Assembly (NCBI GenBank): GCA_041650615.1
Contig: JBAZKU010000001.1
Location: forward strand, 249,216 to 313,215
Length of the DNA stretch: 64,000 bases
DNA from: Minisyncoccota bacterium
GTDB taxonomy: Bacteria > Patescibacteriota > Minisyncoccia > Phycocordibacterales > UBA9973
Reading direction: 5' to 3'
Made by a program: the position numbers and the translations under genes. This document shows positions 8,150 to 42,908 of this stretch, piece by piece (the first letter of the stretch is position 1; the number at the start of each line of letters is the position of its first letter). The notes under the pieces are model-generated. The model had not been told where the DNA came from and did not search any database. It saw nothing but the letters and a program-made list of their open reading frames with translations.

Positions 8150-10081
8150 TTAATATTTCATTCCATGAAAAAGGGCTTTTAAAATAACATCCAATTTCAT
8201 TGTCGCTACGCCTATAACTCTATCTCCTCCGCCGTAGTAAATATAAAGCAATTTATCTTTTACAACCATCCCGCAAGGGAATACCACATTATTAACAATT
8301 CCGCTTTTTTCATATTCTTCCACTGGTTCAAAAATCGGCTCGGTACTGCGCGCCAGCACTATGGCAGGATCTTTTGCGTCAAGCAAAACGCATCCCATAC
8401 GATAAGTATTATGACTTTTAGATACACCATGATAAAGCAATAGCCAGCCATATTTGGTTTTAATCGGCGGGGCGCAAATACCAACCTTAGAACTATCCCA
8501 AGTATTTGTTCTGGGTCCGATAATTCTTATGCATTTTTTTACCATTTCGTGCTTAAAATCCAGGGTTGATAAATAGTCGCCACAAACTTCATTACCTACG
8601 CGATGCAAAATAAAATAGCCCAAAGGAAATTTCTTGGGGAAGAGACAGGTGTCTTTATCATCAATCCCTTGCGGAGTAATGAGAAAAGGTTTTTCCCACT
8701 TCCAATTATGAGCAAGAAAATCTTTTTCCCCAATGGAAGAAATAGCTGCCCTCGGGGGACCAATACTGTCAAAAGCCGTATAACACATATAAATATTTTT
8801 ACCGATTCTAGTTAAACGGGGATCTTCACAACCTGAATTTTGATTATTGATTTTTTTATTTTCAAATTCCTCGCGCGGAACGTAAATAGGCGCAGATAAT
8901 CGTTCAATAATATCAATACCATTTTCCGTCATCGCATATCCCAAAACGGATGTATTATCCTGGGACATAGCGCGATATACTATGTGAATTTTCCCGTTTA
9001 GGGCAATAGAGGCTGGATTAAAAGTTGCTTTTTCTTCCCATTTATTTTCTGTTTTCGGAAGAATAATCGGATTTTGGGGAAAACGTTTGAAACTAAAATC
9101 GCTTTTGTATTTGAAATGTATACTGAAAATAAGGTCGTTTAAATTAACCCGAGCCAAACATACTGTCGTATCGGCTGCGCCGTAATATATGGTAAGCGTA
9201 TCTTTTTCAACCAAAGTTCCGGTTGGAAAAACTATATTTCCGACGTAGCCGGATAATTCGTAAAATTCTTCCGGCACAATAATAGGTCCGCCGGTCCGAC
9301 CTAATATTTTTTGAGAATCTGCTAAGTCAAATAAAACCGCTTCAATACCAAAGATCCTGTCAAGATTATTGGCTGAGGGAAAATAATTTTGAATATGGGA
9401 ATAAAGAAATAGCCAGCCATATTTGGTTTTAATTGGCGGGGCTCCGACTTCTATATGGTCATATGGCGAACGTTTTAAATCAATCATGCAACTATCCACA
9501 TTCTTTTCCCATTTTTCCCAAAATGACGGAGACCATAATTCTTCTATTCTATCCAGTTTGGCAATAACCACTTTAGCCGGAGGAGAATCGGTATGATATG
9601 AAAACATCACCACAATTTTTCCATTTATTCGTTCGGGAAACAGCGTCATGGCTTTGGCATTAAAGGGGGTGACCAAATGGCGCTCATCTATTTTTTTTAA
9701 ATCCTTGGAAAGAGCTACCGCTACTCTGATACCATCGGAGCTGAAAGGGTATTTGGAAAGCGCTGTATAAAAAGTGTAAAAAACACCCTCAAAATACGTT
9801 ATTCTAGGGTCTTCACAACCGAATTTTTCCCATTCTTCTTTGGGAATAATAAACGGCGCACGATCTTTGAAATGCACTCCATCTTTGCTTTTTCCTATGC
9901 CAATAGTTGAAATTTGGCTGGGATTTTGTAATTTATCCACCGCCGAAATAGCGCGATAAACTCCGTAAATATTTTTGCCGTATTTGATTGGGCAAAGATT
10001 AAAACTAGCAAATTTCTCCCAATAATGGTCTCCATCGGGAATTAATATCGGGTTGTACTCGGATTTTTTGACAACAAACAT
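8150..10081 (-). CDS. tandem two-domain GH130-family glycoside hydrolase/phosphorylase (beta-mannoside phosphorylase-like)
   Basis: Two repeats, each with 'GCEDPR' and 'APPIKTKYGWL(F/L)LY' motifs. Confidence 0.65.
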   Translation of the reverse strand: MFVVKKSEYNPILIPDGDHYWEKFASFNLCPIKYGKNIYGVYRAISAVDKLQNPSQISTIGIGKSKDGVHFKDRAPFIIPKEEWEKFGCEDPRITYFEGVFYTFYTALSKYPFSSDGIRVAVALSKDLKKIDERHLVTPFNAKAMTLFPERINGKIVVMFSYHTDSPPAKVVIAKLDRIEELWSPSFWEKWEKNVDSCMIDLKRSPYDHIEVGAPPIKTKYGWLFLYSHIQNYFPSANNLDRIFGIEAVLFDLADSQKILGRTGGPIIVPEEFYELSGYVGNIVFPTGTLVEKDTLTIYYGAADTTVCLARVNLNDLIFSIHFKYKSDFSFKRFPQNPIILPKTENKWEEKATFNPASIALNGKIHIVYRAMSQDNTSVLGYAMTENGIDIIERLSAPIYVPREEFENKKINNQNSGCEDPRLTRIGKNIYMCYTAFDSIGPPRAAISSIGEKDFLAHNWKWEKPFLITPQGIDDKDTCLFPKKFPLGYFILHRVGNEVCGDYLSTLDFKHEMVKKCIRIIGPRTNTWDSSKVGICAPPIKTKYGWLLLYHGVSKSHNTYRMGCVLLDAKDPAIVLARSTEPIFEPVEEYEKSGIVNNVVFPCGMVVKDKLLYIYYGGGDRVIGVATMKLDVILKALFHGMKY

Positions 10082-10087
10082 AAATTT

Positions 10088-11251
10088 TTATTTGAATTCC
10101 AATGATTTATTTTTCTCTAATTTTACTGCGCCATTTTTCTTCATACTGTTTATTAAATCTGAAAGCATTATAGAGGCAATACCTATATGCTTGTCTCCCC
10201 CGCCATAATAAACAAACAGTTTGCCATTTTTTACAACAGCCCCACTGGCGTATATAATCCCTTTTTTCCAGTCATTTTCATACCATTCATCCGGCTCAAG
10301 AATTGGATTCTGCGCCCGATAAAGAACTTTCTCCGGATTTTTTAGGTCAAGCAGAAGTGCTCCTAATTTATAGCGGCCGGAATCATCTTTATCCATAGCA
10401 TGATAAAGCAATAGCCAGCCATCTTTGGTTTTAATCGGTGGCGCAGCGGCGCTGCGGGTGCGTTTATGCCAAGCCACTACATGGTCCGGCAAAGATTGAG
10501 GATCAGGCGCATCTTTTCCTCTGGGTGTTTCTGATGTATCCAGTTTGTTTACAAAAGCAATAGCCACTCGTGCCGGGTCTCCTTTATCCAGATTATGAAA
10601 AATTGCAAACTTGCCATTTATTTTTTCCGGAAACAAAACCCAATTTTTTTGCCTGTCTCCCTCGTGGGAAAGATAAGAAAAATTTTCCCAAACCCATTTC
10701 TTGTTTAATAAATTTTCTTCCTTAATTGAAGTTACCGCCACTCGCATAGAATCCCATCCATTGAACATATTAAAAGTCATATATACATAACCATCTATCA
10801 AAACTGTACGCGGGTCTTCGCAACCGCCCCAGCCACCCCCGGAAGCATAAAGTACCGTATCATAGCGCGCGGGAGAAGTGTAAGGCCAATGTTTTTTCAT
10901 TTCTTCGGCATTTTCCACGAAATAAACCGGATAAGAAAGTCGTTCATCAAAGTTTATGCCATCTTTGCTGGAAGCATACCCAATGCGAGATATCCCATCC
11001 GCTCCCAATGCTCGGTAAAAAAGATGTATTCGTCCGCTGGAAGAAATAACAGCCGGATTAAAGACAGCATGAGATTCCCAATAATATGGTCGAGGTTCAA
11101 TAATTGGATTGCGAGGAGATCTTACAAGTTTCGGAGTTTTAGTTAGTTTTTTGCCTTTTGGCCGCCCTGTTTTAGAGACAATTTTAGTTTTTCTCTTTTT
11201 AACTATGATTTTTTTCTTTATTTCCTTTGATTTTTTCAATACTTTTTTCAT
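10088..11251 (-). CDS. GH130-family glycoside hydrolase/phosphorylase with a basic Lys-rich N-terminal extension
   Basis: GGCEDPR, APPIKTKDGWLLLYHA; N-terminal KKxKK low-complexity region. Confidence 0.65.
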   Translation of the reverse strand: MKKVLKKSKEIKKKIIVKKRKTKIVSKTGRPKGKKLTKTPKLVRSPRNPIIEPRPYYWESHAVFNPAVISSSGRIHLFYRALGADGISRIGYASSKDGINFDERLSYPVYFVENAEEMKKHWPYTSPARYDTVLYASGGGWGGCEDPRTVLIDGYVYMTFNMFNGWDSMRVAVTSIKEENLLNKKWVWENFSYLSHEGDRQKNWVLFPEKINGKFAIFHNLDKGDPARVAIAFVNKLDTSETPRGKDAPDPQSLPDHVVAWHKRTRSAAAPPIKTKDGWLLLYHAMDKDDSGRYKLGALLLDLKNPEKVLYRAQNPILEPDEWYENDWKKGIIYASGAVVKNGKLFVYYGGGDKHIGIASIMLSDLINSMKKNGAVKLEKNKSLEFK

Positions 11252-14741: not shown

Positions 14742-16028
14742 TCAAATTAATTTTCTATAAGCGTAAAGACAGATAGAAATTACAAGAGCTATTAGGAAAA
14801 CCGGAATAGGACAATATTCATTTAAGACCAAAAGCACAAGTATAGCCAGAAGAGAAGAACTTCCAAAGAAAAGATAAAATCTATTTTTTATTTCTTCCTC
14901 CCCCACTAAATCTCTCTCGTATTTTTTTCTAAGCCACAATCGCCAAATTAAATAAATTACCAAAAGTACAAGCAAGGCAATCAAAGTGCAAATGGACAAT
15001 ATATCGCCCCAACCTGAAACAATAGCGGTAGCTAAATTATTATCCAAATTCGGAGTTTCTTCCGCAACCGTAGTGCTTTCTCCTAATACAGCTCCCTCAG
15101 AAGAATTTCCCAATCCAGACCCGTTATTATTTTCAGTAGAAGCTCCAAGCACTAAGCCAGCTTGAGCAAGTAAAGGCATTGTGAATTGATGTTCAACACT
15201 TACTGTTGGTGGCGAAGCGCGTGAGACAACACGATATAAATAAGTTACTCCGGGAGTTAAACCAGTCAAAACCATTTCGTGATTCATAACTTTTCCTGGG
15301 TCTTCAATATTAGAAAATGGGTAACCAAAATTTGTAGCATTTAAATCAAGATTATAAGGTCCAGGCATTGGCCCATAAACCACCTGGCTAGTAGCTAATT
15401 TATTTGTATTCCAAGTTATTGTAGCTGACCCAGTTCCTTCTACATTTGTTAAGTTAAGTGCTTGTTCATTAAATACAATAAGTATTATAGTAGATCCCCC
15501 ACCCCGGGAACCATGAGAAGACCCGCTAATTGAAGTAGTTTCATCTGTGGTCGTTTCATCGCCCTCAAAACCAACTTGCAAATTAAAGCTCATTGATTTG
15601 TTTTGATATTCATTTCCAGATTCATTATCAAATGTTGCCACAAAATCAAAGGTGGTACTTTCTCCAGCTGGAACTTGCGATAAAATTACTTCTGATTTAT
15701 TAAAGAAATTAGAAAAAGTATCATTATATAGAATATTCTCACCTTGTTTTATTTTAATGTGTACTACGTCTCCTAAACCATCATCATTTACCACATTTAA
15801 AGCGCGAGTTATGACACTATGTGGAACAGAAGTCTTATTGTTTAATATTACAAAACGACTGACAGAAGCGCCCGGAGCAAAACTTGCTTCACCGAAAAGA
15901 GGCGCTGTTTCAAATTGAACAGTTGGTACTTCAGCATTTGCCTGCCCGCAAAAACTTGCAAATATTGCTGTTATTATTGTGAGATATATTAATTTTTTGA
16001 AAATTTTGTTCATAATATTTTTATTCAC
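14742..16028 (-). CDS. hypothetical secreted surface protein with C-terminal membrane anchor
   Basis: Signal peptide, Thr/Ser-rich linker, two C-terminal TM helices. Confidence 0.4.
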   Translation of the reverse strand: MNKNIMNKIFKKLIYLTIITAIFASFCGQANAEVPTVQFETAPLFGEASFAPGASVSRFVILNNKTSVPHSVITRALNVVNDDGLGDVVHIKIKQGENILYNDTFSNFFNKSEVILSQVPAGESTTFDFVATFDNESGNEYQNKSMSFNLQVGFEGDETTTDETTSISGSSHGSRGGGSTIILIVFNEQALNLTNVEGTGSATITWNTNKLATSQVVYGPMPGPYNLDLNATNFGYPFSNIEDPGKVMNHEMVLTGLTPGVTYLYRVVSRASPPTVSVEHQFTMPLLAQAGLVLGASTENNNGSGLGNSSEGAVLGESTTVAEETPNLDNNLATAIVSGWGDILSICTLIALLVLLVIYLIWRLWLRKKYERDLVGEEEIKNRFYLFFGSSSLLAILVLLVLNEYCPIPVFLIALVISICLYAYRKLI

Positions 16029-17493
16029 TTATTACAGGTTCACTTGCCGGAGCTTCTACTGGAGCTTCTACCGAAGGCTGACCAACCTCTGGCCGTGGTT
16101 CTTCTGAAACCACTGCTTCTTCTGCAACTGGTACTGATTCTATTTCTGGAACTATTGTTTCCTCTATAACTGGTTCTTCTTGGCTTGTTTCAGGCGTGGT
16201 AGACTCTTCTGTTACAACTTCTTCAACAACTTCCGTATCTGAAGCCGGAGGTGTTTCCTCAGGCGCTATTGTTTCTGTTGTTTCATTTGTAGCTTCTTCT
16301 TGTTCTGTTTCTGTGCCACTAGCCAAAACTTCTTCCGGTTGTTCCTCTTCTGTAATAGCTTCTTCAATCACAGTTTCCTCTTTTGTGTTTTCTTCTGTAA
16401 CAGTTTCATCTTCAACTACTTCACTTGCTACGGTTTCTTCTGCGATAATAGGTTCTGTCAGTGTAAGTTCTACAATCGGTTCTTCTTCAATAATTTCTTC
16501 CACTAATTCATTTGATACGCCCGGTGTTGGTATTGGGTCAACCCAAGATCCGACTCCATCCGGAATTCTGGCATATGAATATCCCTCCGGTTTTTCTTCC
16601 GTATAAGAATAAGAATCAACAACAATACTGGAAGCTATAGGATAACCGGTCGCCAATCTGACACTATCCGCATCATTATTCAAATTAAAATCAGGATCTC
16701 CGTTTCTATATACAACTAGAAATCCATGAGCTCCGATTACAGTCCCGCCTGTATTAGTATTGGAATTTTGAATATAAAGCTTGTGAGAATCATCATTATC
16801 ATAAATTGCCCAACCGGATAAATCAAAAGCTACACTGCTATTATTATAAAGTTCTACCCATTCACCGCCGGGCATTAAAGCATCATCCAAACCACTTGGA
16901 TTTGAAATAAATTCATTAAGAACTACAGCTTTGCCGATTCTTATTGATCCTAATTTTTCTTTTGTACTGCTAAATCCGCTAGAGGCATCAGGCAAATTAT
17001 CTTGCCAAGTTGTGAAAGTCCATTTAAAGAAACAGGTCTTGCCCCAGACACTGGGCGGGGCATCGGAAGCAATCGTAAAATTAAAATTCCAAGCAGTATC
17101 AACTGTAGCCGTCGCTACCGAAGTGAATCCTTGTATTGGTCCTGTATAAGTATCCGTAGGACTAGTAGCTGTCATTGTTATATAATCACAAGCCGAGGTA
17201 CTGCTTCCTGAAAGAGTGGTTTGGACTGTATACTGAGAATCCAAACTGCCGGTGTTAGAAATATGTATGGAAGTTGAAGTAGTATCAGTCGGATACATCA
17301 GACCGGAAGTAAAGTTACTCATGGAATCTAGACCAATATCTAAAATTCCAGCAGAAAGAGAATTATCGGTTAAGCTGTCGGTATCACTGAAATAAGCATT
17401 CGTTGCGCCAATATTGAGATTGAAAGTAATCAAGCTTAAAATAAGAGCAAGAGCAATAAAAATCTTATTTTTTTGTAATATCAGATTATACAT
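16021..17493 (-). CDS. lamin-tail-domain (LTD) surface protein with SipW-cognate signal peptide and long acidic E/T/V/P-rich tail
   Basis: N-terminus ...GATNAYFSDTDSLTDNSLSAGILDIG; LTD core NEFISNPSG...EWVELYN...DLSGWAIYD; about 170-aa polyacidic C-terminus. Confidence 0.55.
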   Translation of the reverse strand: MYNLILQKNKIFIALALILSLITFNLNIGATNAYFSDTDSLTDNSLSAGILDIGLDSMSNFTSGLMYPTDTTSTSIHISNTGSLDSQYTVQTTLSGSSTSACDYITMTATSPTDTYTGPIQGFTSVATATVDTAWNFNFTIASDAPPSVWGKTCFFKWTFTTWQDNLPDASSGFSSTKEKLGSIRIGKAVVLNEFISNPSGLDDALMPGGEWVELYNNSSVAFDLSGWAIYDNDDSHKLYIQNSNTNTGGTVIGAHGFLVVYRNGDPDFNLNNDADSVRLATGYPIASSIVVDSYSYTEEKPEGYSYARIPDGVGSWVDPIPTPGVSNELVEEIIEEEPIVELTLTEPIIAEETVASEVVEDETVTEENTKEETVIEEAITEEEQPEEVLASGTETEQEEATNETTETIAPEETPPASDTEVVEEVVTEESTTPETSQEEPVIEETIVPEIESVPVAEEAVVSEEPRPEVGQPSVEAPVEAPASEPVISE

Positions 17494-18073
17494 TTTCTTC
17501 TATTTTATTTTCTTCTTTAGGTTTCTCGCCCTGAGCCTGTCGAAGGGTCTTCATTCTTTTCGCTTCAACAATAATTTTTTTTACTTCATCAAATATAATT
17601 ATAGCTGACGGAATGACAATTAACACGACAAAGCCCGCGGGTTTTTTAGCAACATCTACGGCATAACCGACATAAGGTATTTTTAAATACATTTTACCGA
17701 TTATATCTTTTCCTAAAATCTCGCGCGTGTCGTTGGAATTATTAGCATCTCCTTTGGTAATGTAAACTATAGCTCCGTTTTGCACCCGCGTTTCCACAAT
17801 ACGGTGCGTGACTGGCGGTTTGATTTTACTATAAGGTCCGAAGGTTACGATGTCGTCAATTTTATATTGCTCCGATGGTTTAACTATAATCATGCTGCCT
17901 GTTTTGATAGTCGGTTCCATTGAACCGGATAAAACGACATATGATTTAAAACCTCCCGGAATCGGCAAAATGGAAATAAGAAAAAACACAATCACCAGGA
18001 GAATTAAAATTCCCAGAACGCGATAAGCTATATTTCCTATTTTGTTTAAATTTGTTTTCATTTTATTATTCAA
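17486..18073 (-). CDS. sipW: signal peptidase I, SipW (archaeal/eukaryal-like) type
   Basis: TM anchor then VLSGSMEPTIKTGSMIIV, typical of SipW/S26B peptidases. Confidence 0.7.
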   Translation of the reverse strand: MNNKMKTNLNKIGNIAYRVLGILILLVIVFFLISILPIPGGFKSYVVLSGSMEPTIKTGSMIIVKPSEQYKIDDIVTFGPYSKIKPPVTHRIVETRVQNGAIVYITKGDANNSNDTREILGKDIIGKMYLKIPYVGYAVDVAKKPAGFVVLIVIPSAIIIFDEVKKIIVEAKRMKTLRQAQGEKPKEENKIEENV

Positions 18074-18144
18074 CCCTTATTCGCCCAGCCCTTTTGAAAA
18101 AGAGCTGGACTGAAAGGATTGAAACTAAAGCTTGGATGTTTTAA

Positions 18145-19263
18145 CTATGGATTCTGTTCAAGAACAAAATCAATATTAAACGTTGTCCCATCGCTTTGAG
18201 CTTGGTTGATACCAGTTGCATCTGGGAATGACCAACTTAGATATACTTGCCCATTATCACCTCCATCTAATGGTCCTAAATCAACACCTGTTGCTAATTG
18301 AGCAAAAGTTTCTGGTGTTCCATTTACGAGCAATTTCAAATATTGGCTCATCTCTCCTTCTGTTGCTCCACCTGTTAGATCACCAGCTACAGATTCAGGT
18401 GAGTAAAGAGTATTTTCATTATCAACAACATTGCTGACTTTTAGCTTTAATGTTCCATTAATATTACCCTCATTTTGGTATTTAATTGTGGCAGTAGTCC
18501 CAGTATCAGTAGGTTTAATGTTTGTAATGTTAAACTGACCAGTTAAACCATCATCACACCAATAAGGTGCACTAGTAGTTGTATAACTTGCATTAACTTC
18601 TACTAAATCATGCTTTGTTTTAGAATTAACATCATTTTGATTCCAACTACCATCTTGTGTTGCTTGGAATTGAATCCTAAGAGCATCAATTTTAGCTTTA
18701 GTTGTAAAACCTAATGTATACAAATTAATATTTTCAATTACATCAGTATTAGCTGTTGGTAAAGCTAAATCAACAGTCTGCCAAGTAGAACCATCATAAA
18801 CTCTGATTCTTGCATCGTTTACACCAGTTCCTCGTTGCCATTCAAATTTAAGAGAAGCATCAGTTACGGTTGCTCCAGTTGGGATGTCTGCCATTGCAAA
18901 ATCTATAAATTCAAGCATATGCCAACCATCGTCTTGGGGGCCATCAGTAGGAGCTCCAAAAGATGTATACCAACCATAGTTACTTGTATAACTACTATCA
19001 TCACTAGCTGATAACATAGCTAATTCAGTAGGAGTTAGCTGATCTGTAACTGTACCCGTTGTATCTATAGTAACATCCTCTGGGTGTAGAGAATCCATAT
19101 CAGCTGTGGTTGCTTCAGGGCATTCTAATTGCAAGTTTAGGGAACCAGCGGTAATAGTGTTGCCTGTTGAAGTTTCAGTGTCACTGAAATATGCCAACGT
19201 TGCTCCTGTAGCAATTGCTCCAACAACTACCAATACCGCTAGACTTTTAATAATTTTTTTCAT
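18145..19263 (-). CDS. TasA/camelysin-like secreted protein with SipW-cognate class signal peptide
   Basis: N-terminus MKKI...ATGATLAYFSDTETSTGNTITAGSLNL. Confidence 0.5.
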   Translation of the reverse strand: MKKIIKSLAVLVVVGAIATGATLAYFSDTETSTGNTITAGSLNLQLECPEATTADMDSLHPEDVTIDTTGTVTDQLTPTELAMLSASDDSSYTSNYGWYTSFGAPTDGPQDDGWHMLEFIDFAMADIPTGATVTDASLKFEWQRGTGVNDARIRVYDGSTWQTVDLALPTANTDVIENINLYTLGFTTKAKIDALRIQFQATQDGSWNQNDVNSKTKHDLVEVNASYTTTSAPYWCDDGLTGQFNITNIKPTDTGTTATIKYQNEGNINGTLKLKVSNVVDNENTLYSPESVAGDLTGGATEGEMSQYLKLLVNGTPETFAQLATGVDLGPLDGGDNGQVYLSWSFPDATGINQAQSDGTTFNIDFVLEQNP

Positions 19264-19288
19264 AATAATTTATTCGTTAAGCGGTTAA

Positions 19289-19855
19289 TTATATTTGTGT
19301 AAGAGTAGCTGTTATACCAAAACCACAGCTATCACCTTGAATTTCATTTCCGACTGTATCAGGAATTTTATAACTCAATGTATAGTCTGCATCAGCTCCT
19401 GCACTAAGAGATCCTAGAGACAAGGGTGTAGAAAGACCAGCCAAAGAATTCCAACCATAAACAGTCACTGAATTATAATCAACTTTTACTTGCATGGTAG
19501 CACATAAATCACCTTCACCAGGACCACCAGTTGAGTCTCCCCCGGTTTGCTCAGGCTCAGTTAAACCATTATCATCATTTGATGTTTGAGTAACAGCAAA
19601 AGTTAAACTACCATCAATAGAACCAGCATTAGTAATTGTACCACTTACATCTTCACTACCACCTGGGACTACATTTGCAACTGTTATCACAGCAGTACCT
19701 GCTAAATCATTGTCATCAATTTTCAAATCCAAAGTTCCAGCAGAAATTGTATTTCCTGTGGAAGTCTCTGTATCACTAAACAAAGCTGTTGTTGCACTTA
19801 CTGCTACTACGGCTACAAGTGCGATAGCGCTCAAACTTAATATAATTTTTTTCAT
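19289..19855 (-). CDS. small TasA/camelysin-like secreted protein with SipW-cognate class signal peptide
   Basis: N-terminus ...SATTALFSDTETSTGNTISAGTLDL. Confidence 0.5.
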   Translation of the reverse strand: MKKIILSLSAIALVAVVAVSATTALFSDTETSTGNTISAGTLDLKIDDNDLAGTAVITVANVVPGGSEDVSGTITNAGSIDGSLTFAVTQTSNDDNGLTEPEQTGGDSTGGPGEGDLCATMQVKVDYNSVTVYGWNSLAGLSTPLSLGSLSAGADADYTLSYKIPDTVGNEIQGDSCGFGITATLTQI

Positions 19856-20517: not shown

Positions 20518-21555
20518 TTATGTTAAAAGTTTTTTATTTTTTTCTTTCTTTAATTCTTTAATATGCTTTTCAGGTAATAAGTTTTCTGGAGTGGTTCCAC
20601 CAATATCTTTGATAGTTTGCCTAACTTTACCACCAACCATAAAATGAGCCCTTGATGCTTGGTCATCCCCTTTTATATTATCTTTTTTAATTTTTTCGCC
20701 AGTTTGTGTAATGCGAAATAAATTAGCAGCCAATTCGGTTGTCCCAGCTCTATCTAAAAGTTCTCCCTTTCTAATACCTTTCTTTGTTTCAATTTCATTT
20801 AATGGCATTCCATACAATCCCTTATACCCAGCATCATTAAATGATCCAAATTTAGTGACTCCTGCTCTTTTGGCAGTGCTAAAAAGTTTTTTATTTTCTA
20901 CTGTTACTTCGTCACGAATAAAAAGTCGCTTATTGGAAGCAGAAAGTTTTTCAAATACTTCTTGTTTCCTTGTTTGAACAGCAAAATACGTTTGAGCTAG
21001 TGCAATTTCTTGTTTATTTGGATCACCATTTTGTGCGATCAAATAACAAGCAAAACGGTCTAGTTTCCAATCTCTTACCTTTCTTATTGTTTTTGAGCCA
21101 ATTTCTACCATTTTCCCCAAAAGGTGAAAATGGTTATCCACATTCTGACCACTATTGACACATGCCCTTGCAGCTCTACCAATAACTTCCTCGGCTTTTT
21201 CCCATTTTAGATAACCCAAAAGAGGCATTAATTCGCGAGCTTGCCAATACTCAATGCCATTTTTATCAACTTTTTTTATATTTTCAAAACCCTTATTCAA
21301 AGAAACTTCTATAATTTTATCATTCATATTATTTAAATTTTCTCTTTGTAGCTTTTTTGGCCAGCATAAGATGCTTGATTGCCAATCTCTTTTTGGTTTT
21401 ATGAGAATGTCTTGATTTATTTTTTGGACTAAGGGTTGTTCCTCTTTTTGCCATATAATTATATTTTTGTTATTGAAATAATAATATTCATTATAACTTA
21501 AATTAACAAAAATTGCATTATTTGTTATATTTAGATAAATTGTTCTTTTTAACAA
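20518..21555 (-). CDS. DinD-like (DNA-damage-inducible protein D / BRO-N family) protein
   Basis: YWQARELMPLLGYLKWEKAEEVIGRAARACVNSGQ...KLDRFACYLIAQNGDPNKQEIALAQTYFAVQTRKQE closely parallels E. coli DinD. Confidence 0.6.
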   Translation of the reverse strand: MLKRTIYLNITNNAIFVNLSYNEYYYFNNKNIIIWQKEEQPLVQKINQDILIKPKRDWQSSILCWPKKLQRENLNNMNDKIIEVSLNKGFENIKKVDKNGIEYWQARELMPLLGYLKWEKAEEVIGRAARACVNSGQNVDNHFHLLGKMVEIGSKTIRKVRDWKLDRFACYLIAQNGDPNKQEIALAQTYFAVQTRKQEVFEKLSASNKRLFIRDEVTVENKKLFSTAKRAGVTKFGSFNDAGYKGLYGMPLNEIETKKGIRKGELLDRAGTTELAANLFRITQTGEKIKKDNIKGDDQASRAHFMVGGKVRQTIKDIGGTTPENLLPEKHIKELKKEKNKKLLT

Positions 21556-21738
21556 TTTTCCCTCCCAGAAGATAAGTGAATACTACCTCGTTGCACGGCT
21601 TCCCCTACTCTCCTAAAGGGAAGCCTTTTTATTTTTTCTTTCATCCCTTGCTATTAATAATTATATATGTTATTATTAATACAATATAGTTCATTGTTAT
21701 AATCAAAAAAATCCATAACCAATAAGGAGAAAACACCC

Positions 21739-23556
21739 ATGGAAAAAAATTTTCCTGGATTAATTTATCTGTCTGCATTTATAGTTATATGGCTTATTGA
21801 TGGCCTTAAATTACTTATTGAATCATTTTGTCATGGTTCTCAACATAACGAATATGCTGGCGAACATAACAAAGTGACGGTAATTGTTGCCGCGCATAAC
21901 GAGGAGAATACAATTCTTAATACGATTAATTCTCTCTCTCACATTATTCCCCTACAAAATATCATTATTGTAGATGACGGTTCAAAAGACAAAACTGCAG
22001 AATTAGTGCGTACGCGTGCCCCGGAGATACTTCTAATCTTGACCACAAATAATGGCAAAGTAAAAGCTATTAATTATGCATTGAACCATGTCAAAACTCC
22101 GTATGTTTTATTAATGGATGCGGATACGGAATTTGAACCGGGATTTATTATCCCGACAAAGGCGCTTGAAGATAAACACGCTACAGCGGTTTCGTTTAAT
22201 GTTGTACCAACAGTAACTGGAAAAAGTTTTATGAACCGTTTTTGGCTGAATTTTCAATCTCACGAATATGCAAAATCCATGCAAATTGGAAAACGATTCA
22301 GTCATCCTACAAAATCTATTCACTGTATAAGCGGGGCAGCCGGACTTTTCCGGACAGAAAGATTAAAAGAGCTGGCTAAAAAACACACAACAATATTTCC
22401 AGGGGAAGATCTTGAGCGTACTTTACTTGAACTTTCTGCAAATGGCGATGTGATTTTTTCAGAAAATACTGTTTTTACAGACGTGCCTCAGACATTCTTT
22501 CAATTATGCCGGCAAAGGATTATCGGTTGGTGGCCGGGGCTATGGCGCAATATGTGGCTGTTTCTTAAGCTTATTATTAAACGCAAGGAGCCTTTTCGCC
22601 TCCGTTATGAATTAATTTATGAAATTTTTGCATTATTTACTAATCCCCTAAAAATTATTTCACTTGTTGTGATGATTTTAAAAGAGGAATGGTATTTAAT
22701 GTTTTTCATTTTCTGCAATTATCTTTTTTTAGAAATTTTTGTCTTTTTTAGGATAAAAAAACTAAATGGAAAGTATATGAAAATGGAAAGTCTTATAATA
22801 GGATCTTTTGCTCTTTATTCCTTGTTGCAAATGTTTTGTGTTGTGTGCGCATTTTTTGTATTTCTACACAAAAAACTTTTTTCCAAAGACTGGAAGAAAG
22901 TTGTGATGATAATGGTATTATTAATACCTTTTTTTTCACAAGCACAGGAGAAGGAAAAAGATTGGACTATTGATTATGGATACTCCCATATAAATGATCC
23001 CGGAAAAGACCGATCGTTTGAAAATCAACAATTATATGTTGGCTACAAAAATTTCTATATTGTTCATTCAACAATGCCATATAATATCGTAAATATTGGC
23101 GGATATTTTGGTTCTTTTATTGTTGATACTAGATATCAATGGCAAAGCAATGGAATTGCTGTAAAAGTTCAGTATGAACATTGGTTTGGAAATATTGTTC
23201 CGCATATTATTGCAGGATATGGAGTATCTGAACAAACGCCTTCGGTTTCTAACCCTTCGTTTCCCACCATAGGACTGGGCATAAACTATTACCTTGAAAG
23301 CGAATCAAGTATAGGTATTGATGCTATTAAAGAATTTGGTCGGGTATATGGATTAACATATATTGCTAAGGCTAAATTTGTAAAAAAACCTGTATGGGGA
23401 ATATTCGGCGTTTCTATTACAAACTCCGGACATACTGGGGTCTTTGGTCAAGTTGGGTATGAATGGTTTTATGTACATACAAACTACTATCAGCATTTTG
23501 ATTTCAATATATTTGATCGAAAAAGTGTTGGAATAGGATTAAAATTTGGTTTTTAG
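21739..23556 (+). CDS. processive family-2 glycosyltransferase fused to TM segments and a C-terminal aromatic-rich β-strand domain ending in Phe
   Basis: GT2 motifs VTVIVAAHNEE, IIVDDGSKD, LLMDADTEF, QLCRQRIIGWW (QxxRW-like). The C-terminal 200 aa begin with a signal-peptide-like stretch (VMIMVLLIPFFSQA) and end in GLKFGF. Confidence 0.55.
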   Translation: MEKNFPGLIYLSAFIVIWLIDGLKLLIESFCHGSQHNEYAGEHNKVTVIVAAHNEENTILNTINSLSHIIPLQNIIIVDDGSKDKTAELVRTRAPEILLILTTNNGKVKAINYALNHVKTPYVLLMDADTEFEPGFIIPTKALEDKHATAVSFNVVPTVTGKSFMNRFWLNFQSHEYAKSMQIGKRFSHPTKSIHCISGAAGLFRTERLKELAKKHTTIFPGEDLERTLLELSANGDVIFSENTVFTDVPQTFFQLCRQRIIGWWPGLWRNMWLFLKLIIKRKEPFRLRYELIYEIFALFTNPLKIISLVVMILKEEWYLMFFIFCNYLFLEIFVFFRIKKLNGKYMKMESLIIGSFALYSLLQMFCVVCAFFVFLHKKLFSKDWKKVVMIMVLLIPFFSQAQEKEKDWTIDYGYSHINDPGKDRSFENQQLYVGYKNFYIVHSTMPYNIVNIGGYFGSFIVDTRYQWQSNGIAVKVQYEHWFGNIVPHIIAGYGVSEQTPSVSNPSFPTIGLGINYYLESESSIGIDAIKEFGRVYGLTYIAKAKFVKKPVWGIFGVSITNSGHTGVFGQVGYEWFYVHTNYYQHFDFNIFDRKSVGIGLKFGF

Positions 23557-23618
23557 AAACCAAAAGGAAAACGAGGCTGTCACTTCATTGTGACAGCCTT
23601 TTTATTTTAATCCCCTAT

Positions 23619-24060: not shown

Positions 24061-24152
24061 AAATAAAAAAGTCCTCCGATTTAAGTCGAAGGACTTTTGC
24101 TTTTTTGACATTCCCCCTTTTAAACTGCGGGAACTTTTTCTTTTTCCGATAA
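24061..24152. repeat. 92-bp segment (3' end of response regulator gene plus terminator hairpin) identical to 25616..25707
   Basis: Direct base-by-base comparison; includes hairpin agtcctccga/tcgaaggact. Confidence 0.8.
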
Positions 24153-24521
24153 GACCCGATCAATTGTGGCTAAAAGATCAACAAGATCATACGGTTTGGT
24201 GATCATATCTCTAGCTCCTAATTTTTTTGACTCACAACAGTTTTTCAGGTCGCCAAAACCTGTTAACATAATGACTTTAATTTTAGGATTTATCAATTCT
24301 TCCTTGGAATTCTGAATAAATCTCAAAACTCCAAATCCATCAACCTTAGGCATCTTGATATCTAGTATTACCAAATCGAATGCCTCTCGTTTGAGGAAAT
24401 CAATCGCCTCTTCTCCATCGGCTGCCATTTGAACATAAAACCCCTCCGGAGAAAGTTCCGCTTCCAATATCACTCTTACATCTTCTTCATCATCCACAAC
24501 AAGAATCCTTGCGTTTTTCAT
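24120..24521 (-). CDS. single-domain response regulator (CheY-like receiver)
   Basis: VVDDEED, LVILDIKMP (phospho-acceptor Asp), IMLTG, ITKPYD. Confidence 0.8.
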   Translation of the reverse strand: MKNARILVVDDEEDVRVILEAELSPEGFYVQMAADGEEAIDFLKREAFDLVILDIKMPKVDGFGVLRFIQNSKEELINPKIKVIMLTGFGDLKNCCESKKLGARDMITKPYDLVDLLATIDRVLSEKEKVPAV

Positions 24522-24663: not shown

Positions 24664-25521
24664 CTAATTTTTTGATTGATGAATAACTCTTTGAGGAAAG
24701 GGAATTTCTATATTTTCATTGTCAAAAGCCATCTTCAGGCGTTTTCTGAGTTCTCCGGCAACATCCCACTGTTTAATCGGTTTTGTCTCCCCGAGAATTT
24801 TTATAATAATTGCCGAATCGGCAAAATCATCAACTCGCAAAAATTGCGGCGGCTTGGTTATAAAATCTTTCCATTCCGGATCTTCACTAAGCTCTTTGCC
24901 CACTTTATTTACAACTGCGATAACCTTTTCCAAATTTGAATTATAAGCGATTCCAATATTTAAATTTACCCTTGAATAGTATTTGGTCAAATTTGAAACC
25001 TTTTTTATTTCTCCATGAGGCACGTGATGGACTGTTCCGTCCAAATCCCGAAGAGAAGTCATTCGCAGGCTGATATCTTCCACCAATCCGCAAGTCTGAT
25101 CAAAACAAACCACATCTCCTATTCTATATTGGTTTTCCAAAATAATAAAAAGGCCGGAAATAATATCACGAATCAAATACTGGCCTCCGAATCCAAAAGC
25201 AAGACCGGCAATTCCGGCAGCCGCCAAAATCGGACCTATTTCAATACCCAGTTCTTGGAGAATCATCAGCCCGGCTATCAAAAAGACCAATACGCTCACC
25301 GTACTGTTAATTATTTTTATAAGAGTATCCCCTCTTTGTTTCTCGGAATTCTTTGATAAAAACCGATTTGAAACAACCATTTTCCTTATGAATTTTTCTA
25401 TAAAAATATGACTGAATTTCCGTATTAAAAAAGACACGATAATAATACCCGCTATTTTTAAACCACTGGTTAAGACCCAAGCATTTATCGTATTTAATGA
25501 AATATTGTCAAATTCCGGCAT
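24664..25521 (-). CDS. small-conductance mechanosensitive channel (MscS family)
   Basis: Three TM segments then the MscS β-domain RIGDVVCFDQTCGLVEDISLRMTSLRDLDGTVHHVPHG. Confidence 0.75.
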   Translation of the reverse strand: MPEFDNISLNTINAWVLTSGLKIAGIIIVSFLIRKFSHIFIEKFIRKMVVSNRFLSKNSEKQRGDTLIKIINSTVSVLVFLIAGLMILQELGIEIGPILAAAGIAGLAFGFGGQYLIRDIISGLFIILENQYRIGDVVCFDQTCGLVEDISLRMTSLRDLDGTVHHVPHGEIKKVSNLTKYYSRVNLNIGIAYNSNLEKVIAVVNKVGKELSEDPEWKDFITKPPQFLRVDDFADSAIIIKILGETKPIKQWDVAGELRKRLKMAFDNENIEIPFPQRVIHQSKN

Positions 25522-25674: not shown

Positions 25675-26079
25675 TTAAACTGCGGGAACTTTTTCTTTTT
25701 CCGATAAAACTCGTTCAATTGTGACCAAAAGGTCAAGGGAGTCATATGGTTTATAGAGAATCTCTGCAACCCCTAAATTTTTCAAGGTTGTTACATCTTT
25801 CTGATTAAGGCAATAATAGCTTGACAGTATGATGGCCTTAATTTTTGAGTTTTGAAATTCTGTTTTGTTATTTTGAATAAACTCCAAAACTTCAAACCCA
25901 TCAACCTTTGGTAAAAAAGCTTCCAATATAATCAGATCAAAGGTCTCTTGTTGAAGAACATTAATCGCTTCTTCCCCGTCAGCTGCCATTTGAACCTTAT
26001 ACCCCTCACGAGAGAGTAAGGCATTTAATACTACCCTTATCCCTCCTTCATCTACAATAAGAACCCTTGTATCTTTCAT
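25675..26079 (-). CDS. single-domain response-regulator paralogue with atypical active site (phospho-acceptor Asp replaced by Glu; DD pair replaced by DE)
   Basis: Aligns along its length with 24120..24521; LIILEAFLPKVDG versus LVILDIKMPKVDG; identical C-terminus EKEKVPAV. Confidence 0.7.
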   Translation of the reverse strand: MKDTRVLIVDEGGIRVVLNALLSREGYKVQMAADGEEAINVLQQETFDLIILEAFLPKVDGFEVLEFIQNNKTEFQNSKIKAIILSSYYCLNQKDVTTLKNLGVAEILYKPYDSLDLLVTIERVLSEKEKVPAV

Positions 26080-30894: not shown

Positions 30895-33135
30895 TTACCT
30901 AAGATTGATAACCGCTCGGATAAATTCAGCAGACCAGCGGAAAACATTATAACTTTTTACAGATTCGCGCATCTTTTTCATCCTTTTGTGCTGTTCAGGC
31001 AATGGCATGCTTAAAGCGACATTCAGGGCTTCAGATGTTTCCTCGGCGCTATATGGGTTTATAACAATAGCCCCCCTAAGATCCCTAACAGCGCCGGTAA
31101 ATTTGCTTAACACTAAAACACCTTTTTCATCATCTCGCGCCGCGACATATTCTTTGGCCACTAAATTCATACCGTCATGAAGCGACGTTACCATACAGAC
31201 ATCCGCAACTTTGAAAAGGGCGCCTAGTTCTTCATGTGTATGATATTCTTTCAATAAAACAATTGGTTGCCATGTTTTTGTCTGGAACTTTTCATTAATA
31301 CGCAGAGCTTCTTTTGTCACTTCTTCACTAAATTGTTTGTATTTCGGCACACTCTCGCGAGAAGGCGATGCTATTTGCAAGAATGTAAAATTATTTTTAT
31401 ATGAAGGATAAGTGTCCAGAAAAAATTCTATCGCTTTAAATCTTTCAAGTAATCCTTTTGTATAATCCATCCTGTCAACTCCCAAACCGATATACTTGCT
31501 ATGGATATCAAGCTTTTCTAAAAACTTTTTCCCAACTTTTTTATCATACAATACATCATTGCCGCTATCAGTGAAAGCAATACTGATTGGAAACGATTTA
31601 ATGTAACTCGTGTGATTTTGATAAGTCACGGTAAACTGCTCAAGGTCGCACAAAGATTCTAATTCTTTACTAACAGTATCTATAAAATTATTACAGAATT
31701 GCTGAATATGGAAACCGACAATATCCGCGCCAAGCATTCCTCGCAGTATTTCCTTGCGCCAAGGACAAACACTAAAAGCTTCAGAACTCGGCCATGGTAT
31801 ATGCCAAAAGATACCTGTCTGCGCGTCCGGTCTGCTTGCTTTTATCATCTGTGGAATTAACGCAAGGTGAAAATCTTGGACCAAAATAATAGGATTTGGC
31901 ACAGATTTTATTTCAGCTAGAATGCTTTCAGTAAACTTCTCATTTACATGGCAGTACCTCAACCAATCATCCTTACGAAAAATAGGACGATTGTGCACCA
32001 TATGACAAAGCGGCCATATGGCTTCATTAGAAAATCCTTCATAATATCCCTTAACTTCTTGATCGGAAAGCCAGATTCTTTTTAAGATATATTTTGGTTC
32101 TTGAGGGGGTACTTTAATCTTATTGTCTTTATCAACAGTTTGTTTATCTGCGTCTCCGCTACCCCAAGCAATCCAGGTACCTCCGCAAGCTTTTATGACT
32201 GATTCAATAGCAGTAATCATTCCACTTGCAGGTACTTTGTAATTTATCTTTCCTTTTGAATTGAAATGCTCATAAGGTTCACGATTAGACACAACAAAAA
32301 CGGGTCTGTCTTTTAGATGTGCTTTGGTAAATTCAGACAAGCGTTCAGCTGTCCACGGAGTGTCAAGTTTTTCCAAACGCATTCGGGCCTCCTCTCGAGC
32401 TGATAAACGTGCTTGAAGTAAACTTTTAGTAATATGAGTAATTTCTTTTGCCAGCGGAGTAAAAAAGGAATATTTCCCTTCGTCTTTAAAACTTTCTTTG
32501 CTTTCCCCCATTCTGATTTTTTTCACAGATTCTACTAGACGAATAACTTGGCGAAAAACAAAAAATCTCAAAATTATGAAAATAGTGATTGAAAATATTA
32601 TTATCTGAATAAATAATCGTAATAAATTACCCTTCCAAATTTCTCTGATACTGGTATTTATATACCCCGCGTTTTGCACTATCATAAGGGCGCCTACTAT
32701 ACTTTCATTATTATGTAATGGGTCAACATGCACATAGCGTGTTTCTCCCTCGGCATCAAAAAAATCATTATTTGAAGTATTACTATCCATTGCTTCAGCA
32801 ACAATTTTAGTATTCTCAATTATAGTTTTTGGCAAGCCAGAAGAAGTGGCCAGGAGTGTCCCTTTATTATCATAGAGAGCGATCCCTGCCAATCGTTCGC
32901 GGTTAGCAAATTTATTTACAACTTTCTGGAGAGAATTTTGGAAAGAGGGCTGTGAAGAATTAGCATAATAAGGTTCAACAGATTCTTTCAAGCTATCAGC
33001 AAGCAGAGAAGCTCGTTGCTCTAAATTAGTCGTTAGGGTTGCTCTTTCTTCATCCACTTGACTGAGGTTGAACCCAAGAGCGACTGAACTTACAGCTATA
33101 ACAACACTACCAATAATGACAAAAATATATTTCAT
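30895..33135 (-). CDS. otsA: alpha,alpha-trehalose-phosphate synthase (GT20) fused to an N-terminal TM-bounded extracytoplasmic sensor-like domain
   Basis: C-terminal 460 aa: VVSNREPY, GGTWIAWGSG, LVQDFHL, GADIVGFH; N-terminal about 280 aa with TM1 (aa 5-25), a about 150-aa extracytoplasmic segment, TM2 (aa 170-195) and a juxtamembrane helix. Confidence 0.75.
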   Translation of the reverse strand: MKYIFVIIGSVVIAVSSVALGFNLSQVDEERATLTTNLEQRASLLADSLKESVEPYYANSSQPSFQNSLQKVVNKFANRERLAGIALYDNKGTLLATSSGLPKTIIENTKIVAEAMDSNTSNNDFFDAEGETRYVHVDPLHNNESIVGALMIVQNAGYINTSIREIWKGNLLRLFIQIIIFSITIFIILRFFVFRQVIRLVESVKKIRMGESKESFKDEGKYSFFTPLAKEITHITKSLLQARLSAREEARMRLEKLDTPWTAERLSEFTKAHLKDRPVFVVSNREPYEHFNSKGKINYKVPASGMITAIESVIKACGGTWIAWGSGDADKQTVDKDNKIKVPPQEPKYILKRIWLSDQEVKGYYEGFSNEAIWPLCHMVHNRPIFRKDDWLRYCHVNEKFTESILAEIKSVPNPIILVQDFHLALIPQMIKASRPDAQTGIFWHIPWPSSEAFSVCPWRKEILRGMLGADIVGFHIQQFCNNFIDTVSKELESLCDLEQFTVTYQNHTSYIKSFPISIAFTDSGNDVLYDKKVGKKFLEKLDIHSKYIGLGVDRMDYTKGLLERFKAIEFFLDTYPSYKNNFTFLQIASPSRESVPKYKQFSEEVTKEALRINEKFQTKTWQPIVLLKEYHTHEELGALFKVADVCMVTSLHDGMNLVAKEYVAARDDEKGVLVLSKFTGAVRDLRGAIVINPYSAEETSEALNVALSMPLPEQHKRMKKMRESVKSYNVFRWSAEFIRAVINLR

Positions 33136-35643: not shown

Positions 35644-36090
35644 TCAAGTTCCTCTTCTAATTTTATTAGTTTCGTAGTGATTTTCAGTTATAGCAACTAC
35701 ATATAAAATCCTTTTTGGCTCAATATCAAAATAAAAAATACGACCAGTGCTTTGTAAAAAGAGTTCTCTTATTTCAATACCTTCATCAATCTTACTATAA
35801 AGCTTTTTATAATCACCCGAGTTTTCTACACTTTCATTTCTTATATTATTTCTTTGAAAATCAGCTCGTGTGTAAACCTTGGTTCCAATTTCTCTTAAAA
35901 TAGAAAGAGCTTTATTCCCTTTATTTTTACCAAGTATGTCTATTTCACAACAATTTTTGTTGTATTTTGAGAAAGATATTAAATAAGGTTTAGTTTCAGG
36001 TTCTTCTGTCTCTTGGGATACTTCGGTCACTTTCTGAGGTATCTCATTATAACTCTCAACCTGTGTAACCTCATCAGGAATTTCTGGCAT
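35644..36090 (-). CDS. hypothetical protein; C-terminus resembles a RelE/ParE-fold toxin (putative toxin partner of the Panacea protein)
   Basis: C-terminal GRIFYFDIEPKRILYVVAITENHYE pattern; 5-bp gap from the upstream Panacea gene. Confidence 0.3.
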   Translation of the reverse strand: MPEIPDEVTQVESYNEIPQKVTEVSQETEEPETKPYLISFSKYNKNCCEIDILGKNKGNKALSILREIGTKVYTRADFQRNNIRNESVENSGDYKKLYSKIDEGIEIRELFLQSTGRIFYFDIEPKRILYVVAITENHYETNKIRRGT

Positions 36091-36095
36091 AAGAG

Positions 36096-36596
36096 TTATT
36101 TTTTAGCTATTTCTAGTTTTTGAGAATAAAAGCTTTTCATTGTTTTGGGAGAAATTTCATTTTCTGAATTTTTAGAACTCTCTAGTCCTTCTCTAGCTTC
36201 TTTCCACGGTGTCTCATTATGTGTAAGCATTTCTAAATAATCAGCATCTAATCCACCATACACAGACCAAATCTCATCTAAAAGCTTTTTAGCTTCAGTA
36301 GGGATTGTTTTTATTAAAGTTGCGTCCGCTTCTTTTTGTATATAATTAAATCCAAAATCTTTGTATTTAACATACAAACTTTTGATTGCTGGTCCGTGAA
36401 CCCACGCTTCAATTTTTTCATTGAAAAGTTTTTGATTATTAAACACCAAAAACCAAGCTTGTGCATAGTAGACAAGTTTCTGAAGCTTTTTATTAGTTAT
36501 TCCTTTCTTATCTTTATTAGCTTTATCTATAAAGTATTCTGCGACAGTCAAAGCACTTACTTTTTTAGTGACTAAACTCATAATTGTATTATACAC
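36096..36596 (-). CDS. Panacea-domain (DUF4065, SocA-like) putative antitoxin
   Basis: KLQKLVYYAQAWFLVFNNQKLFNEKIEAWVHGP is characteristic of DUF4065. Confidence 0.5.
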   Translation of the reverse strand: MYNTIMSLVTKKVSALTVAEYFIDKANKDKKGITNKKLQKLVYYAQAWFLVFNNQKLFNEKIEAWVHGPAIKSLYVKYKDFGFNYIQKEADATLIKTIPTEAKKLLDEIWSVYGGLDADYLEMLTHNETPWKEAREGLESSKNSENEISPKTMKSFYSQKLEIAKK

Positions 36597-36661
36597 TTTT
36601 CTACTTAAATTTACAAAGAGGTGTTGATAAGTATTGTAAACTAAAGTAAACTATATAATAT

Positions 36662-38311: not shown

Positions 38312-38628
38312 TTTCCTTGATGCCTAGAGGGAAAAATTAAAATGGCTTTTGATATGCACAGAGGGATATTATAAACCCTCTTATTTTTTTTATTTATAAA
38401 TAATAAATAAAAACAAAAAACCCTCTCGTCCCCTCTAGCTGATTTTTGCTTAGAGGGTTCTTCATAATGCTTTTATGCAGGATAAGAAAGAAACAAAAAA
38501 AGAATTAAATCCAAAACTATTGGATTTATCGCCTGAAGATAGTCGTGATTTAGGTAGTTTCTTTACCTTGCTTATAAAAATAGATAAGCGAGTAAATCCT
38601 GCAAATTATCAACTTAATAAAAAAGAAT

Positions 38629-39747: not shown

Positions 39748-39785
39748 AAGTTGCTATGTAAAGTATTGTCAAGTATAATATAAAT

Positions 39786-40164: not shown

Positions 40165-40167
40165 GTT

Positions 40168-42162: not shown

Positions 42163-42167
42163 AACTT

Positions 42168-42905: not shown

Positions 42906-42908
42906 ATT

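Follow-up and report, generated by a model that had tools for sequence, protein, structure and literature searches.

A 64,000-nucleotide stretch of DNA from a Minisyncoccota bacterium (GenBank assembly GCA_041650615.1, contig JBAZKU010000001.1, positions 249,216 to 313,215), referred to here as the window, carries on its forward strand, at positions 21739 to 23556, a gene whose 605-residue product joins a glycosyltransferase family 2 (GT2) synthase, an internal signal peptide and a predicted 14-stranded β-barrel in one reading frame. An initial annotation of this DNA had described a processive synthase fused to a putative secreted β-barrel-like domain and had noted that such a fusion would be a one-protein device for polysaccharide synthesis and export. 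The observation, a synthase fused to a domain of β-barrel type, is confirmed by the analysis presented here, and the interpretation is supported. The identical protein is found on an NCBI record labelled Candidatus Paceibacterota. The gene looks monocistronic, with a transcription unit of its own, and its parts are as follows (window coordinates; residue numbers of the precursor).

21676..21703, forward strand: promoter-like site, TTAATA, a 16-nt spacer and TATAAT, with TG (consensus match alone)
21724-21729, forward strand: ribosome-binding site AAGGAG, 9 nt 5' of the ATG
21739..23556, forward strand: whole gene, ATG start, encoding the 605-aa precursor (GT2 synthase, internal signal peptide, predicted 14-stranded β-barrel)
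21754..21828, forward strand: N-terminal transmembrane helix, residues 6-30, with invariant D21, K24 and E28 (AlphaFold2 helix, alignment, loop charges)
21868..22515, forward strand: cytoplasmic GT-A (GT2) catalytic domain, residues 44-259, with the motifs DDG (79-81), DAD (127-129), SGAAGLF (198-204) and GEDLERT (222-228) (Pfam, invariant columns, fold matches to hyaluronan synthase and BcsA)
22513..22533, forward strand: QRIIGWW, residues 259-265, in an interface helix spanning 253-270
22594..22881, forward strand: three C-terminal helices, residues 286-314, 318-343 and 350-381 (AlphaFold2)
22867..22944, forward strand: predicted internal Sec-type signal peptide, residues 377-402 (rule-based scan, homologue comparison)
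22945..23553, forward strand: predicted 14-stranded porin-type β-barrel, residues 403-605, ending GIGLKFGF (AlphaFold2, Foldseek, alternating hydrophobic face)
23573..23600, forward strand: intrinsic-terminator-like hairpin, 11-bp stem and T run, 17 nt past the stop codon

The motifs quoted in the initial annotation (DDG, DAD, QRIIGWW and the C-terminal GLKFGF) are all present. In an alignment of 36 full-length homologues of ~580-650 residues the architecture is unchanged at identities down to ~30%; F605, G600 and R594 are conserved in at least 90% of them and G454 is invariant.

The synthase, the junction and the barrel domain

Judged by sequence and predicted fold, residues 1 to ~385 belong to the class of membrane-embedded processive GT2 synthases that includes BcsA, hyaluronan synthase (HAS), chitin synthase and PgaC, an assignment that follows from Pfam matches, invariant catalytic residues and fold matches taken together. 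Pfam recognises Glycos_transf_2 at residues 47-205 (1.1e-24) and Glyco_tranf_2_3 at residues 44-259 (1.3e-14). D80, D127xD129, E223-D224, Q259-R260 and W264-W265 are invariant in 36/36 homologues, and QRIIGWW is a variant of the QxxRW motif that is longer by one residue. The full-length AlphaFold2 model, with a predicted local distance difference test (pLDDT) score of 86, contains one N-terminal membrane helix, the GT-A domain, interface helices and three long helices. Its synthase part finds the Chlorella virus and Xenopus hyaluronan synthases as best Foldseek matches in the PDB (7e-13, 432-453 columns aligned), with BcsA and chitin synthases following down to 1e-9; entries 8sne, 8smm, 5ej1 and 4p00 match at 7e-13 to 9e-12. 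The PgaC/cellulose-synthase-like GT2 of the initial annotation is thereby borne out at the level of class. A PgaC orthologue was considered and rejected, since the best NCBIfam match, PgaC_IcaA TIGR03937 (3e-19, residues 13-315), reaches 69.3 bits, far under its cut-off of 422.3. Which sugar is polymerised is not readable from the sequence.

The N-terminal helix likely has its N-terminus outside and its C-terminus inside. Within it (window 21799-21825, residues 21-28), a D-G-x-K-x-x-x-E pattern is invariant in 36/36 homologues and in the split forms described below; conserved charges of this kind, lying within a membrane helix, point to a function in gating or in the channel.

The synthase is followed by a segment whose sequence varies among the 36 fused homologues while its anatomy is kept. 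The sequence quoted in the initial annotation as a likely cleavable signal peptide, KKVVMIMVLLIPFFSQA|QE, is present at residues 386-404. The signal peptide predicted here, residues 377-402, has an n-region (HKKLFSKDWKK), a 12-residue h-region (VVMIMVLLIPFF) and a c-region (SQA), with a predicted signal peptidase I cut at A402/Q403. This n/h/c anatomy is present in all 36 full-length homologues examined, as 3-10 K/R, an uncharged hydrophobic run of ~9-20 residues and small residues at −3/−1. A rule-based scan recognises the small −3/−1 site in 35/36, and the remaining homologue (P0023) reads AAA|E by eye; at −1, 22 have Ala and 13 have Ser, Gly or Cys. AlphaFold2 assigns pLDDT values below 50 to residues 377-402. 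Those stand-alone barrel homologues that were inspected have an N-terminal signal peptide at the equivalent place. Given this conserved AXA-type site, the precursor is probably cut into two proteins, so that one gene would yield two products.

The topology of the junction is approached through loop charges. The family mean of K/R per loop is 0.3 (N-terminus), 3.3, 5.0, 0.4, 3.4 and 3.9, which by the positive-inside rule places residues 376-389 in the cytoplasm. The same counts put the loops on both sides of helix 350-381 in the cytoplasm, an arrangement that requires this helix not to cross the membrane. In hyaluronan synthase, transmembrane helices (TMH) 3 and 4 are followed by the cytosolic interface helix 3, the gating loop and TMH5 (PMC11750622). 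By analogy, helices 286-314, 318-343 and 350-381 would be TMH3, TMH4 and interface helix 3, the assignment of 350-381 being drawn from the same comparison, and we infer a topology in which the h-region of the signal peptide would take the position of TMH5 and carry the C-terminal domain outwards.

The β-rich C-terminus noted in the initial annotation is modelled with 14 strands in two independent AlphaFold2 runs, one on the full-length protein and one on the domain alone; in the latter, with a 53-sequence alignment, the 14 strands are antiparallel and the model scores a pLDDT of 94.4 and a predicted template modelling score of 0.85. All of the top 50 Foldseek matches in the PDB are outer-membrane porins, among them OmpU (3.7e-6), OmpG (TM-score 0.62, query-normalised) and KdgM (0.55-0.58 query-normalised, 0.63-0.66 target-normalised), and in BFVD the named top matches are phage-encoded outer-membrane barrels. 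Across the 53 sequences, every strand shows a 60-90% hydrophobic face on one side and a polar or Gly-rich face on the other. The domain is rich in G (11.9%), Y (8.9%) and F (7.9%) and contains no Cys. In the model, the strand connections are 2-5 residues long on the side of the termini and 4-10 on the opposite side, which is the pattern of outer-membrane proteins; the connections opposite the termini contain all four of the conserved motifs DSNGR, KEFGR, NFGDPG and NFDFxxFDR. There is no extra or periplasmic scaffold domain in the model.

By sequence, the barrel is a family absent from Pfam, NCBIfam and the PDB sequences: Pfam offers OMP_b-brl at E=0.8 only, NCBIfam gives no match, and a profile search of the PDB returns nothing at E<=10. 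The barrel is also rare: an exhaustive profile search of 1.84 billion protein representatives recovered only 73 clusters with it, of which ~25 are fused (579-678 aa) and ~30 stand-alone (217-288 aa). Fused barrels keep the invariant Gly, Tyr and Arg positions, and their hydrophobic-face fraction is 0.72 compared with 0.69 in diderm stand-alone forms. In the three closest homologues, identity is 73%, 58% and 59% for the barrel and 76%, 65% and 62% for the whole protein. The terminal Phe, taken in the initial annotation as an outer-membrane signature, is present here and in 27/31 fused forms; just 7 of ~60 split diderm homologues end in an aromatic residue, a charged tail of ~5 residues being usual instead, and a terminal aromatic is therefore not family-defining.

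Split and fused relatives and the genomic setting

A scan of one genome per GTDB species yielded 78 loci with a related synthase, on which profile hidden Markov models (HMMs) of both halves were run; a fusion was called when both domains lay in one open reading frame (ORF). In 69 loci the synthase is followed directly, and on the same strand, by the barrel, which is a separate gene in 65 and fused in four, all four of them from Patescibacteria. The 65 split loci, which supply the split-gene homologues that the initial annotation had proposed as a check, come mostly from diderm phyla, chiefly Eisenbacteria, and also from Acidobacteriota, Nitrospirota, Deltaproteobacteria, Binatia, Methylomirabilota, Armatimonadota, Verrucomicrobiia and others. 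Nine of the 78 loci have no barrel within the sequence covered, some of them being cut by contig ends. Six split loci were inspected; in each, an N-terminal signal peptide is encoded by the barrel gene itself, whose start either overlaps the synthase stop or lies right beside it. Stand-alone and fused barrels align end to end. The split-gene pairing shows that synthase and barrel work as a pair, the C-terminal half being an exported protein; taken with the sequence and model data, the two halves are a dedicated pair whose C-terminal half is predicted to be an exported lipid-facing barrel of porin type. A tblastn search with a single barrel sequence had given ~10 matches in the 78 loci and the impression that most diderm relatives lack the barrel, which the profile HMM result overturned.

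Named sources of fused proteins are Paceibacterota, Elulimicrobiales, Campbellbacteria and 'Patescibacteria group'. Outside Patescibacteria, fused forms occur in Solitalea lacus, a Bacteroidota species with a complete 4.4-Mb genome, and on three phage-like contigs. The latter (L081, from Logan SRR17165151, and L082 and L083, IMG/VR uncultivated virus genomes of 48.7 and 145.5 kb) encode fused homologues of 618-645 aa together with T4_Y16D and PHROG SbcD-like nuclease and exonuclease genes. A phage-borne synthase-barrel unit recalls the chloroviruses, which encode hyaluronan and chitin synthases. The GenBank phage collection held no close relative of the protein. In a neighbour-joining tree of the synthase half, the fused forms make one clade, with Solitalea and the phage-like forms basal, and the split forms a sister clade; lacking support values, the tree is indicative only. 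In the literature, no description was found of a synthase-porin fusion or of outer-membrane-type barrels in bacteria of the candidate phyla radiation (CPR), to which the Patescibacteria correspond.

Two further observations concern these relatives. Q403 (window 22945-22947) places Gln directly after the predicted cut, as in ~16/35 fused proteins, Solitalea included, an arrangement known as the 'Bacteroidetes Q-rule' (PMC5837995). The equivalent residues of three other signal peptides in the window are T, E and T, not Gln; in the fused gene the Gln may go back to an ancestor from Bacteroidota or phages, as no more than a hint of where the gene came from. The related synthase of Nitrospirota is itself fused 3' of a BcsA-like GT2 with PilZ-type domains (L007, 20-3013, 997 aa; L009, 5529-9173, 1214 aa), and at locus L005 (10072-12417) it adjoins a BcsA-like GT2/PilZ gene without fusion, which suggests a cyclic di-GMP-controlled double synthase sharing the small barrel.

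The neighbours of the gene in the window are a Bro-N protein, a 140-aa ORF without assignment and a response regulator. No related locus has a homologue of the upstream Bro-N protein or of the downstream 140-aa ORF, and in CPR genomes the synthase-barrel gene stands alone among unrelated housekeeping genes with no conserved neighbours. The Bro-N gene is divergent (20518-21555, reverse strand), in a region of lower GC (0.315), and the Bro-N domain is common in phages and mobile elements. This neighbour, the lower GC and the non-syntenic CPR contexts fit horizontal mobility of the synthase-barrel gene.

Elsewhere, genes for DnaE, ribonucleotide reductase, ParB, a P-type ATPase and MscS give the window the character of a chromosome from a small-genome organism. 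Some 4 kb from the synthase-barrel gene lies a gene for an S26-family signal peptidase (17486-18073). In the same area, 16021-19855 on the reverse strand encodes three proteins with Peptidase_M73 (camelysin/TasA-like) N-termini and the motif A(Y/L)FSDT(E/D), one of them with a lamin-tail domain; with the S26 peptidase they look like a fibre cluster of SipW/TasA type, a Gram-positive-style surface feature. The MscS channel gene (24664-25521) is flanked by two paralogous receiver-only response regulators (24120-24521 and 25675-26079, reverse strand) that share the identical C-terminal tail SEKEKVPAV; the second has neither the acidic pocket nor the phospho-acceptor Asp (VDEGG, LEAF) and is likely a pseudo-receiver. 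The region from ~36000 to 44500, where the GC falls to 0.275-0.30 against 0.35 for the window, is probably a mobile element that has integrated; it encodes a large serine recombinase (42909-44426), an N6-methylase with a TaqI_C domain (40168-42162) and two ORFs, of 549 and 372 aa, that Pfam does not recognise. Two adjacent GH130 genes (β-mannoside phosphorylase family) occupy 8150-11251 on the reverse strand, and 30895-33135, on the same strand, encodes a 746-aa GT20 protein (trehalose-6-phosphate synthase family) with a 280-aa N-terminal extension that starts with a membrane-anchor-like segment.

Proposed mechanism and competing explanations

The finding is a variant of synthase-dependent polysaccharide secretion in which a new barrel family is encoded as part of a polyprotein. 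We consider it reasonably probable that the gene is a one-gene precursor of a self-contained, two-part secretion module of this kind. On the cytoplasmic side of the membrane, the ~385-residue GT2 would use a nucleotide sugar to build up a β-linked glycan, as its family suggests, and thread this glycan through its own helical channel. Residues 377-402 would act as an internal Sec signal, with the K/R-rich n-region in the cytoplasm and the h-region crossing the membrane, so that the C-terminal domain is exported; a signal peptidase I cut after SQA402, suggested by sequence conservation, would then release a ~402-aa synthase and a free 203-aa barrel. For the released domain, the predicted fold is a β-barrel of 14 strands that faces lipid and has short loops and a polar lumen. 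The diderm relatives make this barrel from a separate gene, and there it would presumably reside in the outer membrane as the exit pore or anchor of the polymer; in the Patescibacteria lineage the same pair is joined in one reading frame. Of the one-protein synthesis-export device proposed initially, the fusion and the barrel are upheld, whereas the product is probably two proteins and the role as an export pore is our reading of the pairing.

Several points weigh against this scheme. The nature of the polymer, processivity, cleavage and the function as a pore are inferred in every case, and barrel closure and the orientation of the two domains are taken from Foldseek scores only. Helix 350-381 is uniformly hydrophobic; were it to cross the membrane, the orientation of the h-region would be wrong, and in that case the topology of the junction would depend on the positive-inside rule and the analogy with hyaluronan synthase. 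The barrel is bare, unlike the known synthase-dependent exporters with their tetratricopeptide repeat (TPR) scaffold, and with no periplasmic part the guidance of the polymer to the barrel is hard to account for. Finally, CPR bacteria are regarded as monoderm (bioRxiv 10.1101/2021.05.31.446380; PMC8871954) and are treated as part of a monoderm clade (bioRxiv 10.1101/2021.05.31.446380), so that an outer-membrane destination and assembly by the β-barrel assembly machinery (BAM) are unexpected here.

The explanations that would dispense with a secretion module altogether fare poorly. There is very little chance that an assembly error or a frameshift has fused two genes into this ORF, or that its C-terminal domain is a soluble β-sandwich carbohydrate-binding module, both of which had been raised in the initial annotation. 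The fusion is present in dozens of independently assembled contigs (homologue P0008 alone is found in 60 blocks of the collection) as well as in a complete Bacteroidota genome, and its conservation across many lineages shows that it is not a frameshift artefact; AlphaFold2 models the domain as 14 sequential antiparallel strands with pLDDT 94, and its top PDB matches are all porins, with no β-sandwich among them. No result was obtained in favour of either option. It is improbable, too, that the barrel is unrelated to polymer export, as a small general porin, an adhesin, an anchor or a decaying CPR relic after horizontal transfer. The link between barrel and polymer is an indirect one, and the loci without a barrel, some of which are truncated by contig ends, would mean that some carriers may manage without it; against this stand the strict same-strand adjacency in 69/78 loci from many phyla and the repeated in-frame fusions, and the fused barrel is nearly as conserved as the synthase, which is not a pattern of decay.

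The remaining explanations accept the module and concern its place in a monoderm cell, a surprise voiced in the initial annotation that stands, since CPR barrels keep their hydrophobic face, a conservation almost as high as that of the synthase, and the terminal Phe. One unlikely solution is that the barrel inserts without BAM into the cytoplasmic membrane of the CPR cell, beside or above a minimal four-helix synthase, where it would serve as translocation path or chimney, either cleaved or tethered by ~6 residues after the h-region. This would agree with the lipid-type hydrophobic face retained in fused barrels despite the monoderm lineage, with the mere six residues between the predicted cut and strand 1, with a synthase of only 1+3 helices plus signal peptide and with the lack of a periplasmic scaffold domain; the conserved motifs opposite the termini, unusual for surface loops, would suit a docking face. 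We know of no β-barrel in any bacterial cytoplasmic membrane, however, and an unplugged 14-stranded pore would collapse the proton-motive force; moreover, the stand-alone homologues resemble ordinary secreted outer-membrane proteins. Nor does the synthase have to borrow a channel, since that of hyaluronan synthase is built mainly by TMH2-4 together with interface helices (PMC11750622). It is similarly unlikely, and we would credit it slightly less, that the carriers are not truly monoderm, having an outer lipid layer, or that the barrel is delivered to the outer membrane of an attached host, and is in either case an ordinary outer-membrane pore. The envelope has been described directly in very few CPR organisms (PMC8871954), the hydrophobic belt and terminal Phe are kept, and the fused clade includes the diderm S. 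lacus and phage-like contigs, where an outer membrane would be met. On the other side, no outer-membrane gene was seen among the 20 window ORFs scanned against Pfam, no other window ORF has a β-signal-like C-terminus, the TasA/camelysin-like cluster with its S26 signal peptidase is of Gram-positive style, and CPR are placed within the monoderm clade in the work cited above.

More broadly, we put forward tentatively, as possible though on the doubtful side, that an outer-membrane-type β-barrel is used by a cell without outer membrane or BAM, inserting by itself after Sec export and acting as polymer conduit or anchor. It could enter the membrane of the CPR cell itself, beside the synthase, or a host's envelope, and the same tentative estimate covers both. 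A role of the barrel in CPR that does not require a bilayer may also be considered. If self-insertion were true, a monoderm CPR bacterium would for the first time be seen to have a functional porin-type barrel, and the gene would be a minimal single-gene polysaccharide secretion device, carried by phages too.

For the secretion module favoured above, the wider interest lies in several directions. The pairing of a HAS/PgaC-like synthase with a bare 14-stranded barrel, lacking a TPR scaffold, is an undescribed polysaccharide secretion module spread over many little-studied phyla, and the same pair, split in diderm phyla and fused in Patescibacteria, amounts to a natural experiment. A cell with strictly one membrane should have no conserved porin barrel that faces lipid, which makes this barrel a handle on the CPR envelope; its location would reveal BAM-independent insertion or revise the picture of that envelope. 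A single 1.8-kb gene that possibly makes and exports a polymer is attractive for engineering, and such compactness would explain its carriage by phages and reduced genomes.

Comparison with known systems

The best structural matches to residues 1 to ~400 are class I hyaluronan synthases (Chlorella virus HAS, Xenopus HAS1) and BcsA (7e-13 to 1e-11). They share the GT-A domain, the D/DxD/xED/QxxRW-type motifs and the interface and membrane helices, from which coupled polymerisation and translocation may be expected of the window protein. Sequence identity is only 11-17%. The window protein differs in having one N-terminal helix where these enzymes have two or four, in its QRxxGWW motif, and in lacking a PilZ domain and TMH6, the place of TMH5 being taken by a putatively cleavable signal peptide and then the β-barrel.

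PgaABCD provides the likeness of a GT2 synthase paired with an outer-membrane β-barrel. PgaA consists of a 16-stranded barrel and a TPR domain, and the exporters PgaA, BcsC, AlgE/AlgK and PelB generally combine a 16-18-stranded barrel with a periplasmic TPR scaffold. The window barrel, in contrast, is bare, with 14 strands and ~200 aa, and its locus has no PgaD/IcaD, PgaB/IcaB or TPR-porin PgaA as neighbours. What it shares with the synthase-dependent exporters (PgaA, BcsC, AlgE/AlgK, PelB/PelC) is the barrel adjacent or fused to a glycosyltransferase synthase, in 69/78 loci.

In size and shape, the nearest barrels are OmpG (14 strands) and KdgM/NanC (12 strands), of which KdgM conducts oligogalacturonate. 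There is no detectable sequence relationship, and these proteins are stand-alone uptake channels, not synthase partners; the window barrel family has short, conserved loops on its distal side. For the polyprotein format, the parallel is Bradyrhizobium fbcH, which encodes cytochromes b and c1 as one polyprotein that is split by signal peptidase at an internal signal peptide. Both have a membrane protein followed by an exported protein in one frame, with an internal signal sequence for export and cleavage; the proteins are unrelated, and cleavage of the window precursor is predicted from its sequence.

The closest relative is the uncharacterised two-gene module of a GT2 and a 220-290-aa signal-peptide protein found in Eisenbacteria, Acidobacteriota, Nitrospirota, Deltaproteobacteria and others, which is homologous to the window gene from end to end: its synthases are 32-42% identical and its barrels score 60-263 bits against the profile. 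It differs in that its genes are separate and that some of its synthases carry an N-terminal BcsA-like domain with PilZ. The window gene belongs to the same family as this GT2-barrel module.

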